Origin: Promethearchaeota archaeon
GTDB taxonomy: Archaea > Asgardarchaeota > Lokiarchaeia > Sigyniarchaeales > SOKP01
Direction: 5' to 3'
DNA length: 10,813 nt
Assembly: GCA_019058015.1 (NCBI GenBank)
Contig: JAHLWH010000146.1
Coordinates: 1 to 10,813, forward strand
Shown here: positions 2,581 to 6,901 of the stretch, one piece after another
Position numbering within the stretch: position 1 is the first letter of the stretch
Layout: the number at the start of each line of letters is the position of its first letter
The notes under the pieces: model-generated
What the model was told of the DNA's origin: nothing
The model's database searches: none
The model's input: the letters and a program-made list of their open reading frames with translations, nothing else
Position numbers and translations under genes: made by a program

Positions 2581-3903
2581 TTATAACTTTATTTTCATTG
2601 GATATAGTTTTGATTTTGGACCAATAATGTTATTATCACTATCTTTATATTTTACTGTTGTATTTATATCAAATTCACCTGGTTCAAGTGGCTTAATTTG
2701 AATTTCCCATCTTATATCTTCATTTGGTCTGATTGAATATACCTGTTTCTTAGTTGTCCCGCGCATAACTTTTAATTCCTCGGGGAATTCTAGTTCAATT
2801 TCGATTTCTAAAGCTTCTCCGGTGCTTTTATTAGAGACAGTTATTTCCAATGGAAAAGTTTGATTTATTAATGGAGGTTTTAAATTTTTAAAATAAACTC
2901 CAAGCTGTGTAGGAGGAGAACTAATGTTTAAATGTTGTGATTTTGATTTTATATGAAATGTTAATAAATCATTTATATTTGATGTTATTAATATTGATCC
3001 AAAATATGATTCTGGATCAGGAAAATTTGAAACGGTCTTAAACTTTAGATTAATATGTTCTCCTTTATTCAATTCAATTGGTAATTTTGGCTTTCTAATT
3101 ATTGATAAATTATCTGAATGGGCAATTCTAATATTATTAAAAGTTAGTTTTTTAATTTCAAAATTCAAACCTGTATCTAATGTTAAATTAAGTAAAAGTT
3201 TTGTATCGATATCAAGAGAACAATCAATTTTTTCATCAGTTGTGAAATTATTCTTTTGAAAATTTAGTTGATTTTTTATTGATATATTAATATAAGCCAA
3301 AAGTAATACAAATTTTATTAATCGTGCTTCTCCACTTTTAAATTTATACTTATCCAAATTATTTTCAATTTCCTTCAAGGATTTAATATTTTTATCAATA
3401 ATTGCAGTTGTTGTGTTTTTTATTAATTGAGTAAAGATGTTCTCTCTAAAAGAATCAATATCCACCCTGACTTTTATTGATTTTATATACTTTAACCCTT
3501 CATCTTGTCGTCCCAATAAAAAATAACAGAAATATGAAAAGCTACTACAAACCAATGCATTAAAATCTCGATCTTTACTCTTTTCTCTTTTTAAAGCATA
3601 TTTTGCCGCTAGTTGAAAATTTTGTCCTGCTTTATTAAACCCATCTATCATTAAACTGGCATTGGCTGCTTTCCTGTAATAGGTTGATATATTCTCATAT
3701 TCTTGACTATATTCATAAGATTTACATACCATTGAAAAGATTTTTTCAGCAGTATCATATTCCTCAACTTTATAGAAATCTTCTCCAGCTTTTATAAAAT
3801 GCTTTGCAGCCTTATTGTAATTCTCAATTTCGAAAAATCTTTCTGCTTTATTTAATTTTTTATTTGCAGATTCGATTAAACTTTGTTTATCTCTCTCTTT
3901 CAT
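2581..3903 (-). CDS. hypothetical cytoplasmic protein: N-terminal SNAP/TPR-like helical repeats plus C-terminal Ig-like beta-sandwich domains
   Basis: 440-aa ORF with repeated helical motifs (YNKAAKHFIKAGEDF, ISTYYRKAANAS, FNKAGQNFQLAAKY). C-terminal alternating beta strands (FPLEITVSN...IEIELEFPEEL...IRPNEDIRWEIQIKPLEPGEFDINTTVKY) resemble CARDB/DUF11-type Ig folds. No signal peptide or TM segment. Confidence 0.6.
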   Translation of the reverse strand: MKERDKQSLIESANKKLNKAERFFEIENYNKAAKHFIKAGEDFYKVEEYDTAEKIFSMVCKSYEYSQEYENISTYYRKAANASLMIDGFNKAGQNFQLAAKYALKREKSKDRDFNALVCSSFSYFCYFLLGRQDEGLKYIKSIKVRVDIDSFRENIFTQLIKNTTTAIIDKNIKSLKEIENNLDKYKFKSGEARLIKFVLLLAYINISIKNQLNFQKNNFTTDEKIDCSLDIDTKLLLNLTLDTGLNFEIKKLTFNNIRIAHSDNLSIIRKPKLPIELNKGEHINLKFKTVSNFPDPESYFGSILITSNINDLLTFHIKSKSQHLNISSPPTQLGVYFKNLKPPLINQTFPLEITVSNKSTGEALEIEIELEFPEELKVMRGTTKKQVYSIRPNEDIRWEIQIKPLEPGEFDINTTVKYKDSDNNIIGPKSKLYPMKIKL

Positions 3904-4006: not shown

Positions 4007-4387
4007 TTATTTTCCTTTTTTAACAGTTCCTTCAAATGTTTCAAACTGTTTGAAGATTGAAATATCTCCTTCAATTTTTGCAAAAACATTTACAGGTGAA
4101 ATTGCTCTCGGCTTATCCCCTTTACTAACTGGAGTCGATCCAAACATAATACAAAATCCAGTTCCTTGAATCCAATATGCTACATCACCAACTTCACAAT
4201 CTTCTTGTGCGTTTTCTCTTTCAATTTTTATAGGAATTGAACCATATAATTCATCACCCCACCGTGATAATGATATTTTTAAGGGTAAATTGTCCCAAAT
4301 TGCTTTACATGTTTTTGGATTTTTATCTAGTAATAATTTTGCTTTAATTACACCAATTTTCTCATTCTCGATAATAATTTCTTTCAT
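4007..4387 (-). CDS. cyclophilin-like fold protein (DUF369-type)
   Basis: Motifs PKTCKAIWDNLP, RWGDELY, GDVAYW..G.GFCIMFGSTPVS, PRAISPVNVFAKI are typical of this small archaeal family. AAGGA lies just upstream of the ATG. Confidence 0.8.
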   Translation of the reverse strand: MKEIIIENEKIGVIKAKLLLDKNPKTCKAIWDNLPLKISLSRWGDELYGSIPIKIERENAQEDCEVGDVAYWIQGTGFCIMFGSTPVSKGDKPRAISPVNVFAKIEGDISIFKQFETFEGTVKKGK

Positions 4388-4413
4388 ATTCCTTAACTCA
4401 AATTTTAATTATG

Positions 4414-4446
4414 CTTTTTGAAATAATTCAATTAAAATTCAAAAAG
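4414..4446. repeat. inverted repeat / hairpin between the SECIS and the cyclophilin-like gene
   Basis: CTTTTTGAA (4414-4422) and TTCAAAAAG (4438-4446) are perfect 9-bp reverse complements, with an inner TAAT-tca-ATTA pairing. Confidence 0.5.
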
Positions 4447-4452
4447 TTTAAT

Positions 4453-4521
4453 ACCGAATCCTATTGCGATAGGCTGTCATAATACGACTAAAATTTATTC
4501 ATATTATTCATTCTATTCGGT
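4453..4521 (-). promoter_or_regulatory. eukaryote-type SECIS element (cis-acting RNA for UGA-to-Sec recoding)
   Basis: The minus strand reads AUGA (4511-4508), AUAAUAUGA, AU, AAA (4496-4494), UUUUAG, UCGUAUUAU, GA (4478-4477). It forms a 9-bp upper helix (AUAAUAUGA/UCGUAUUAU, one G-U) on a tandem G.A core, with apical As 11 nt after AUGA. A lower helix ACCGAAU (4521-4515)/AUUCGGU (4459-4453) is available. It lies directly 3' of a gene with in-frame UGAs. Confidence 0.82.
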
Positions 4522-4929
4522 TTTTAATTTGTTGAGGGGATTTTTTCCAAGCTTATTAATCTTTTCCGAAGTTGTTATTGCAGTTTTTTGAAATTTATCT
4601 CCTTCCGCTGAGCTACAATACTCCATAAATACTCTCTCTGGGTTAAAACCAATGGTTTTTAAGATTTCTTGCACATATTCCACATTTTTTAAAGCAACTT
4701 TATTCCCAATTTCATAATCACATTCACCTGGATATCAGCCAACTACTAAAACTCCATCGGCTCCATTACCAATTGATCTCATGATTAAACTTGGAGTTAC
4801 TCTTGCAGTGCAGTTTACTCTAATTGGTCTAATTGTTGTAGGATATTGTGCACGAATCGTTCCAGCCATATCTGCCGCTCCGTAACCTCATTTCAAACAT
4901 AAAAAAGCTAAAATTTTAAAATCTTCCAT
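4513..4929 (-). CDS. mvhD: methyl-viologen-reducing hydrogenase delta subunit (MvhD/VhuD, [2Fe-2S]), selenoprotein with Sec14 and Sec65, 138 aa
   Basis: Absent from the ORF track. Manual translation: MEDFKILAFLCLK-U-GYGAADMAGTIRAQYPTTIRPIRVNCTARV...GADGVLVVG-U-YPGECDYEIGN...IGFNPERVFMEYCSSAEGDKF...LGKNPLNKLKTE. TGA at 4890-4888 and 4737-4735 replace the Cys of the MvhD motifs CxxC and GCxxxxC. TAG stop at 4515-4513. Confidence 0.95.
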
Positions 4930-4933
4930 TTTT

Positions 4934-6901
4934 TTATGCCACCTCTTCCTTTGTTCCTTCTAATAAAGCATCAATTTGATCTTCATATTGAACTTCTCGA
5001 TAATATCTTAAAGTTATTGCTTCACTTGGACAATTCGCAAGACAAGAACCACAACCTCTACATGCAATTTCATCAACTTCAGCACCATCTTCAACCATTT
5101 TAATAGCATCATATGGACAATTTAATATACATAATCCACATTTACTACATTTTTCCTTATCTACTTCTCCAGTAATGAGTTCTATTTTATATTTTCCACG
5201 TTTCATTAATTTTCCAGCAGATGATGCAGCTCCTCCTGCTTGCATAATCGATTCAGCGATCGATTTTGGACCTTGAGCAACGCCTGCAAGTGAGATGCCG
5301 GGAATCTTCGTCTCTATCGGCTCTAATCTTGCGTGTCTTTCTTTAAAAAAACCATCTGGAGTAACTTCTAATTTTAATGTCTTTATCAGTGCAGAAATAT
5401 CATAATCTGGAATCATTGCAGCAGAAAGAATAATCAAATCATATTCTTTCTCTTGAACACCTAGAGTTTCTCTCAATGTATCTTGGATAAGAACTTTCAA
5501 ATTTTTTGTTTCTGGGTCTTCATAAACTCTTGAGATATTACTGCGTAAATATTTTATACCCTCTTTTCTCGAAGCAGTGTAGTATTCCTCATAATATTTC
5601 CCTGCAGCACGCATATCCATATAGGCAATAGTAATTTCTGCATCAGGGTAATGTTGTTTGATTAATTTTGAATTTTTTATGCTAATCATGCAACACACAC
5701 CACTTGAACAGTAAGCATTCCTGTTTAAATCTCTTGAGCCAACGCATTGGATGAATAAAATTCTTTTAGGCTCTTTTCCATCAGATGGTCTTACCAAATG
5801 TCCGTTAGTGGGTCCATTTGGCGCTAAAATCCGTTCTAATTGTAACTGAGTTATGACATTATCATATTTATTGTATCCTAAATATCCATCTTCTGGTATA
5901 TATTCATCCCAACCTGTTGCTACAATTATGGTTCCGACATCTAATTTAATTATTTCAGGTTGTTGGTCAAAATCTATTGCTTCTAATTCACAAACGCTCT
6001 CACATAAACCGCATTTAATACATTGATTCATATCAATTTGTGCAATCGATGGAACGGCTTGTGGAAAACTAATGTAAATTGCTGGTCTAGGATTTAATCC
6101 TTGATTGAATTCATTATATCCATAAGCAGGACACACATCCATACAAGCTCCACAACCGTTACAATCATTATTTACATACCTAGCTCTTTGATTAATTTCT
6201 ACTGAAAAATTTCCTATATAACCTGAAATTTTGGACACTTCGGAGTATGTATATAACTTAACATTTTCATTCCTTGCAACATCTAACATAACAGGTCCCA
6301 ATATTCATATGCTGCAATCATCAGTTGGAAAAGTTCTATCAAGCATTGCCATTTTTCCGCCAATTGTTGGCTCTTTCTCAACTAAAAACACTTCATAATC
6401 TTGATCTCCAAGTTCATTTGCTGCTTTTAATCCCGCAACACCTCCACCGATAACCAAGCACTTTCCAAGAACATCAACTTCTCTTATAAGAATTTTCTCC
6501 AATTTTGCTGCTCTTACGACCGCAGAACGAAGTAAATCCTTTGCAACTTTTAATGCGCCCTCTTTATCATGCATATGAACTAATGATGAGTGTTCTCTAA
6601 TGTTACAAAATTCTAAATATGATGGATCAACCACTGTATCTTCTAATACTTTTTTAAATACGGGTTCATGTGTTATCGGAGTACACGCACAAACAACTAA
6701 TCTATTAGAATTGGTTTCTTCCATTTTTTCTTTAATAAATACTGCTCCGCCTTCAGTACATAGACTTATATAATTACTTGATTCAACCACGTTGGGTAAA
6801 GTCTTTACATATTCAACCAAGGCATCTGTGTCAATAAATCCTCCAATATTTATCCCTCAACGACAAATAGCTACATATATTCGTATTTCTTCAGTTTCCA
6901 T
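4934..6901 (-). CDS. hdrA: heterodisulfide reductase subunit A (FAD / Fe-S), selenoprotein with Sec15 and Sec199, 655 aa
   Basis: One continuous frame from ATG at 6901: METEEIRIYVAICR-U-GINIGG (TGA 6859-6857), CACTP, NIREH, GGGVAG and EKEPTIGG (FAD site), TFPTDDCSI-U-ILGP (TGA 6307-6305), CxxCxxCxxxC ferredoxin motifs, QCVGSR, YCSSGVCCM, QGPKSI, two C-terminal CxxCxxCxxxCP motifs. It joins track ORFs 6305-6820 and 4934-6301, and the length fits a full HdrA. Confidence 0.95.
4940..4945 (-). promoter_or_regulatory. Shine-Dalgarno site for mvhD inside the hdrA 3' end
   Basis: GAGGTG on the minus strand, 10 nt before the mvhD ATG (...GAAGAGGTGGCATAAAAAAATG). Confidence 0.6.

Follow-up and report, generated by a model that had tools for sequence, protein, structure and literature searches.

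Four in-frame UGA codons interrupt two adjoining genes, hdrA and vhuD, in an Asgard archaeon, and the question raised by this locus is how they are read. The stretch of DNA analysed here, referred to below as the window, is 10,813 nucleotides long and is an entire contig of a 3.84-Mb genome (29.4% GC, 94% complete). Without recoding of UGA, both genes of the window would be annotated as broken. A first-pass annotation, made from the sequence alone, had placed a eukaryote-type SECIS in the 3' UTR of vhuD (mvhD). Our analysis indicates that this element is very probably the SECIS of the hdrA-vhuD pair of a Loki-type (Promethearchaeia) Asgard archaeon, of the kind described as lokiSECIS or type I eSECIS-like, and on the evidence of the sequence hdrA and vhuD most likely share this single element for all four of their UGA codons.

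All the genes around the element lie on the minus strand (Table 1). The read-through product of hdrA matched the NCBIfam model HdrA2 with 764 bits over residues 7–653, and this match spans both UGA codons. The vhuD frame follows the hdrA stop after a gap of 4 nt, and its product matched Pfam FlpD (E = 1.4e-42) as well as NCBIfam VhuD, the latter with 134.7 bits, under the 215-bit cut-off. The four UGA codons lie 226, 379, 1796 and 2348 nt upstream of the element. In the metatranscriptome run X20 we found a 407-nt contig that is ~97% alike over 4609–5004 and spans the boundary between the hdrA stop and the vhuD start. This is compatible with co-transcription of hdrA and vhuD in a close relative, for an assembled contig in which DNA carry-over is possible; no sequence from this run covered 4300–4608, the part that includes the SECIS element. 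DNA contigs from three other runs had no differences within 4453–4521; one of them differs at 14 places over 413 nt. The comparison as a whole is too weak to count.

Past the element, a second hairpin lies 7 nt beyond the SECIS junction and ahead of the next gene, which is cyclophilin-like; judging from the predicted fold, this hairpin may be the transcript end. Adjoining the cyclophilin-like gene, at 2581–3903 on the minus strand, is a 440-codon ORF with a sub-threshold match to Pfam TRAP_beta (21.1 bits against a cut-off of 22.4 bits).

Table 1 Features of the hdrA-vhuD locus and of its 3' UTR element in the window
Feature	Coordinates	Strand	Details
hdrA	6901-4934	minus	655 codons, read-through ORF; in-frame UGA at codon 15 (6859-6857) and codon 199 (6307-6305)
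vhuD/mvhD	4929-4513	minus	138 codons; in-frame UGA at codon 14 (4890-4888) and codon 65 (4737-4735); UAG stop 4515-4513
Whole SECIS three-way junction (P1 + K-turn + P2 + P3)	4453-4521	minus	69 nt; MFE and centroid structure
P1 5' strand	4521-4515	minus	7 nt; last vhuD sense codons and U of UAG; pairs with 4459-4453
K-turn bulged strand	4513-4508	minus	G4513 (last base of the stop, position -1b), bulge A-A-U 4512-4510, G4509-A4508
A4512 and AUGA	4512; 4511-4508	minus	A is the 1-nt spacer after the vhuD UAG stop; AUGA follows
P2 5' strand	4507-4499	minus	9 nt; all pairs change on both sides across 25 distinct alignment rows
Apical loop	4498-4488	minus	11 nt; AAA 4496-4494 at loop positions 3-5; ends A4489-G4488
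P2 3' strand	4487-4479	minus	9 nt
G4478-A4477 and C4476	4478-4476	minus	G-A lie opposite the 5' G-A of the core; C4476 (position -1n) forms the closing pair with G4513
P3	4473-4460	minus	5-bp hairpin, GC-containing 4-nt loop; abuts the P1 3' strand directly
P1 3' strand	4459-4453	minus	7 nt
Second hairpin	4414-4446	minus	9 bp, 15-nt loop, flanking U5/U4 tracts (centroid fold and sequence)
Cyclophilin-like gene	4387-4007	minus	Next gene past the SECIS element

The first-pass annotation had described an AUGA one nucleotide after the vhuD UAG, a helix of nine base pairs, an apical AAA beginning 11 nt after the AUGA, and a closing GA followed by C that would complete a tandem G.A core. Its coordinates, 4476–4512, are exact, as is every feature that it described within them (Table 1); the strand, which it left unstated, is minus. 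The P2 helix consists of nine standard pairs with no mismatches, one of them a U-G wobble, and nearly all are A-U or G-U, with a single G-C. The loop starts with A-U-A-A-A, where the U at position 2 is a small departure from the run of adenines seen in the Loki group.

Could this hairpin have arisen by chance in AU-rich sequence, or serve just to end or stabilise the transcript and have no part in recoding, the real SECIS being located elsewhere? At 29.4% GC, AU hairpins and the words AUGA and GA are common in this genome, U tracts lie downstream of the element, and RNAfold gave −16.4 kcal/mol for 4530–4440, with a z of only −2.5, and 3 of 200 shuffles folded equally well. However, a strict pattern (ATGA, 9 bp without mismatch, an 11-nt loop, then GA or AA) had one match in the window, both strands included, and when the window was shuffled 1000 times with its dinucleotides preserved, just 6 of the shuffles gave at least one. 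The pattern scan found no other SECIS candidate on either strand of the window, where the hdrA-vhuD gap is only 4 nt, and this element alone was matched on the contig by the covariance model described below. Compensatory changes behind orthologues with unrelated helix sequences, and recurrence in the genome only behind UGA-containing genes (apart from one pattern-only match), further argue against chance, and we consider this explanation very improbable.

The relatives of vhuD also support a SECIS. A protein search with VhuD yielded 40 related loci, several of which carry just the label 'uncultured archaeon'. Where a lineage is named, the locus comes from an Asgard MAG (Promethearchaeota/Promethearchaeia, Sif-, Borr-, Jord-, Freya- or Helarchaeota), with the exception of one Bathyarchaeota and one Thermoproteota MAG. 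The best VhuD match has 96% protein identity and the nearest relatives are Promethearchaeia MAGs, in agreement with the Asgard origin that had been proposed for this DNA. Thirty-seven loci were scanned from −40 to +200 of the vhuD stop, leaving out L004 and L037, in which the stop was not located, and L039, which reaches the contig end. The motif was retained downstream of these orthologues at 13 of 37 loci by the strict pattern, at 21 when up to one mismatch was allowed, and at 26 when the loop or stem could also be off by 1. The other 11 fall outside the scan pattern even in its loosest form; in several of them the element can be recognised by eye, with a bulge or with a helix of 7 bp, and these do not enter the counts.

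To count pairs we used a gapless 41-nt alignment (A3) of 26 elements, comprising that of the window, four others of the same genome and 21 loci, with 25 distinct rows. MAFFT alignment of 81-nt flanked elements (A1) mis-registered the Loki group, and a further alignment (A2) kept the P2 register but lost P1 and P3. Because register was lost in A1 and A2, pair counts were taken from A3 and P1 and P3 were followed in constrained folds. The AUGA, the AAA at loop positions 3–5 and the 3' A (alignment column 37) are invariant in all 26 rows. The loop ends in G in at least 90% of rows, and column 36 holds G except in the AA variants, which have A there. The first-pass annotation had put forward covariation across mvhD 3' UTRs as a check, and among the 25 distinct rows all nine P2 pairs, together with one flanking pair, change on both sides, with up to six pair types per pair. 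Paired combinations fill 96.8% of the A3 cells, against 35–40% when the partner is slid, a percentage that is inflated by the choice of rows, which were picked for fitting the 9/11 geometry and are mutually related; this selection does not inflate the variety of pair types. None of 500 shuffles reached the observed covariation score.

We also ran a covariance model built from the A3 rows on the 3.84-Mb genome. Six matches scored 40–48 bits, and the next best scored 21 bits. Each of the six strong copies lies behind a gene with an in-frame UGA. Five of them, the window element included, are training rows, and the sixth, on contig C125 (24857–24897, plus), is independent: it is located 1 nt past the UAG of a third vhuD paralogue of ~141 codons with two UGAs. 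On contig C134 (4681, plus), an element follows the second vhuD, which has 142 codons and again two UGAs. Both the C125 and C134 elements have the same three-way junction as that of the window. Judged by its sequence, this genome holds at least three putative vhuD selenoprotein genes, each with its own Loki-type SECIS. The remaining copies are found behind vhuU (C28) and behind two small UGA-containing ORFs (C101 and C213). One further pattern match, on C72, lies within a coding sequence, has a loop that is not A-rich and received no score from the covariance model, and we took it as chance.

The elements on C213 (22483, minus; L061/L068) and C101 (7822, plus; L042/L063) are strong Loki-type SECIS, with 45.3 and 43.1 bits. 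The small ORFs ahead of them have an N-terminal hydrophobic helix and, with UGA read as Sec, end in G-G-G-Sec-Gly. One has 51 codons; the other has 140 codons, a second UGA in a P-U-N-C context and a stop 155 nt ahead of its element. None of the seven Asgard selenoprotein families presented in the main text of PMC11227280 is a match for either. The C213 ORF, with its UGA and its SECIS, is kept in three of four same-genus genomes at 93–99% DNA identity, and among its relatives indels come in multiples of three and the codon after the UGA is Gly or Cys.

On C28 (~2517, minus; L044/L065) the element accompanies a split [NiFeSe] hydrogenase, made up of a large-subunit gene of 435 codons and, after it, a short vhuU-like ORF with the motif C-U-L-S-C-A-A-H. 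This short ORF terminates at the very UGA that forms part of the SECIS core AUGA; it thus has a Sec-UGA and also a stop-UGA that belongs to the SECIS. The stop is likewise the core UGA in the vhuD of L023–L025, L027, L030 and L031, and in the vhuD paralogues of C134, L005 and L006 a UAA stop lies inside the 9-bp helix.

The UGA codons themselves are conserved among the relatives. All 38 sequences have UGA in the first UGA column of vhuD, and the hdrA codon-199 column, whose flanks are conserved, is an in-frame stop in each of the 34 matched loci. The hairpin would be dispensable if the code had changed generally or if UGA were suppressed independently of a SECIS, and the presence of four UGAs at distances of as much as 2.3 kb from one element could be taken to suit such a mechanism. 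However, UGA also terminates genes here, namely the vhuU frame of C28 and vhuD of several relatives, and the second UGA column of vhuD, with UGA in 36 of 38 relatives, aligns with Cys in the other 2. The genome also contains a dedicated machinery for selenocysteine. A tRNA-Sec gene is present on contig C156, ~3.3 kb from a gene for SelB (the two fall within 15452–20894). The SelB protein has 494 codons and scored 269.9 bits against a cut-off of 242.25 bits; it matched the archaeal SelB 4ac9 over its full length (314.6 bits), and human eEFSec in the core only. SepSecS is present as well (388.5 bits). We regard reading of UGA by a changed code or independently of a SECIS as extremely improbable. 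An SBP2-like protein was not found in this 94% complete genome, in which the only L7Ae-fold proteins are L7Ae, on contig C61, and L30e, on C204.

In the standard kink-turn register, a C-side pair is followed by a 3-nt bulge, tandem G.A pairs and then a helix. The window element has the tandem G.A/A.G, the 3-nt bulge and a Watson-Crick pair on the C side, and the core G and A and the 3' A are invariant. The closing pair, which joins the base ahead of the R-A-U bulge to the one that follows GA (G4513-C4476 in the window), is formed in all 25 distinct rows, as GC in 11, UA in 10, AU in 3 and UG in 1, and it played no part in the selection of rows. From this modelled fold we infer that the SECIS hairpin sits on a textbook kink-turn register.

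These same features, the textbook register with its 3-nt bulge, tandem G.A and covarying closing pair, would also be expected of a general kink-turn protein site unrelated to Sec, such as a regulatory or sRNA-like element that is bound by L7Ae and acts on mRNA fate or on the cyclophilin-like gene, and the top Rfam match in a focused scan was indeed a C/D-box snoRNA, at an insignificant 13.4 bits (E = 3). However, each of the six strong copies is associated with a gene that has an in-frame UGA, and the invariant loop AAA with the fixed 9/11 geometry are features of SECIS and not of C/D elements. The downstream gene also varies among relatives, and L003 has no cyclophilin-like start past its element. 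We regard a kink-turn site without a role in Sec incorporation as highly unlikely.

As a SECIS, the element can be set beside the three known types. Eukaryotic SECIS elements have a kink-turn core (AUGA_GA) and an apical AA, lie in the 3' UTR and are bound by SBP2. Bacterial SECIS are hairpins that lie inside the gene, immediately downstream of every UGA, and are bound by the winged-helix domain of SelB. Methanococcal and Methanopyrus SECIS have a GAA_A bulge between stems and G-C clamps. The window element shares with the eukaryotic type the AUGA core, the GA partner, unpaired adenines ~11 nt after the AUGA, the 3' UTR location and a putative action over a kilobase range, but it differs in its shorter upper helix, in an archaeal-type SelB with no SBP2 found, and in its putatively polycistronic mRNA. 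Comparison with eukaryotic SECIS models, which the first-pass annotation had suggested, gave no match: none of the Rfam SECIS families appeared at E ≤ 10, either across the whole window or in a focused scan of 161 nt (4400–4560), and such matches as there were to other families were insignificant. The earlier assignment to the eukaryotic consensus holds for the layout of AUGA, A-rich loop and GA and for its place in a 3' UTR whose gene has two in-frame UGAs, but the element is a short-helix Loki variant that no Rfam SECIS family matched. On its sequence, it resembles a eukaryotic SECIS and would work like one, and is a member of the Loki/Asgard family and not formally of the eukaryotic family.

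The 3' UTR location is shared with the methanococcal SECIS as well. The first-pass annotation had set the element apart from the methanococcal GAA/A type, and this was borne out: no GAA_A structure was found on the minus strand in the 143 nt of 4530–4388 with the loose model of Huang et al. (PMC11227280), for which the chance rate in the window is ~0.1 per 143 nt. The methanococcal VhuD SECIS is itself described as also having AUGA, GAC/AAC and an extra stem (PMC4989117).

The earlier statement that such elements are known from Lokiarchaeota agrees with both descriptions of the Asgard type. In the main text of Mariotti et al. (2016; PMC4989117), the lokiSECIS always has AUGA ahead of a 9-bp stem with an 11-nt loop, in which adenines are preferred at the first five positions and the last G is ultraconserved, usually after A; the stem is followed by GA, or by AA in vhuU, and every hdrA-vhuD tandem has a single element after vhuD. 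Standard SECIS models miss this element, according to the same authors. The window element is like the lokiSECIS in its AUGA, 9-bp stem, 11-nt loop, early adenines, terminal A-G and GA, and in being one per hdrA-vhuD tandem, and the vhuU element of the same genome is like the lokiSECIS of vhuU in having AA after the stem. Unlike the classic Loki group, the window element has a loop of A-U-A-A-A instead of five adenines, and a further difference from the lokiSECIS as described there is that its helix is almost wholly A-U and G-U, with one G-C.

The second description, the type I eSECIS-like model of Huang, Xiao and Zhang (2024; PMC11227280), has a core of GA_[G/A]A, an upper stem of 7–15 bp with at most 2 mismatches and a loop of 8–20 nt; it was catalogued across more than 400 Asgard genomes, where neighbouring hdrA and frhD/vhuD share one structure. 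The window element fits this model, again with one structure for adjacent hdrA and vhuD. An absence of SBP2 has been reported in both studies (PMC4989117 and PMC11227280).

Where the window element departs from these models is below the core. There, PMC11227280 describes an internal loop and a lower stem without conserved nucleotides, whereas the window element has a three-way junction and a hairpin with a GC loop. The main text of PMC4989117 is without a closing helix in the coding sequence, a third hairpin or the 3-nt-bulge register, which its supplement S4 may show; likewise, neither a junction nor a second hairpin is mentioned in the main texts of PMC4989117 and PMC11227280, and the supplements may show them. 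A literature search for archaeal SECIS with a three-way junction gave only unrelated papers.

The same junction architecture was obtained in constrained folds of the relatives. With P2 fixed, P1 had at least 6 bp in 29 of 29 folds, and the P1 sequences of the clades are wholly different. Exchanging the 5' flank for that of another clade gave an equally good or better fold in 52 of 716 cases, most of them between clades with similar P1. In 28 of 30 elements P3 had at least 3 bp, and a GC dinucleotide in the P3 loop was likewise seen in 28 of 30, set against a genome GC of 29%. In secondary structure only, the fold is like the k-junction of Wang, Daldrop, Huang and Lilley (2014; PMC4005666), a kink-turn within a three-way junction in which an extra helix leaves the non-bulged strand and can stack on the C-side helix: here too a three-way junction is built on a kink-turn, and P3 abuts P1. 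Unlike in the k-junction, 1–2 Watson-Crick pairs and a linker of 2–6 nt separate the G.A pairs from the junction. The modelled fold may be a k-junction or, just as well, a simple kink-turn with a junction behind it.

Taken with the SECIS assignment, these features suggest how the element could act. hdrA and vhuD would be carried on one mRNA, and the element in its 3' UTR would fold as a kink-turn in which G4509-A4508 and G4478-A4477 form the tandem G.A/A.G next to the bulge A-A-U and the closing pair G4513-C4476. This kink-turn would carry the 9-bp helix, with AAA displayed in the 11-nt loop, and would stand on a base helix made partly from the last vhuD codons. A binder, either SelB itself or L7Ae/L30e, would then bring SelB-GTP-Sec-tRNA(Sec) to ribosomes paused at the four UGAs; an L7Ae-family protein and/or the Sec elongation factor, as put forward in the first-pass annotation, would be a plausible reader. 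Ribosomes terminating at the UAG would melt P1 and the closing pair, so that the element would have to refold between rounds.

Elements of this kind were already published in 2016 and 2024, and the window instance is a correct one but not a new one; its value is confirmatory, with a modest structural refinement. We tentatively propose, as something possible rather than probable, that the functional Asgard SECIS may be the whole 69-nt junction and not the published hairpin alone: a kink-turn or k-junction, a base helix built from codons and stop, and a third hairpin whose GC loop would contact the SECIS binder or the ribosome. If this is true, termination and SECIS folding would be physically coupled, and a construct with the hairpin only would be expected to fail in heterologous tests. 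A lokiarchaeal SECIS was indeed not functional in Methanococcus maripaludis, according to a 2025 discussion (PMC11881835), and this fits either a lineage-specific reader or a junction-less construct; absence of the junction from the construct would be one possible reason for the failure under the whole-junction proposal. How archaeal SECIS elements are recognized without SBP2 is a question posed in PMC4989117, PMC11227280 and PMC11881835, and the kink-turn register with its junction would offer a larger unit to use in experiments on it.
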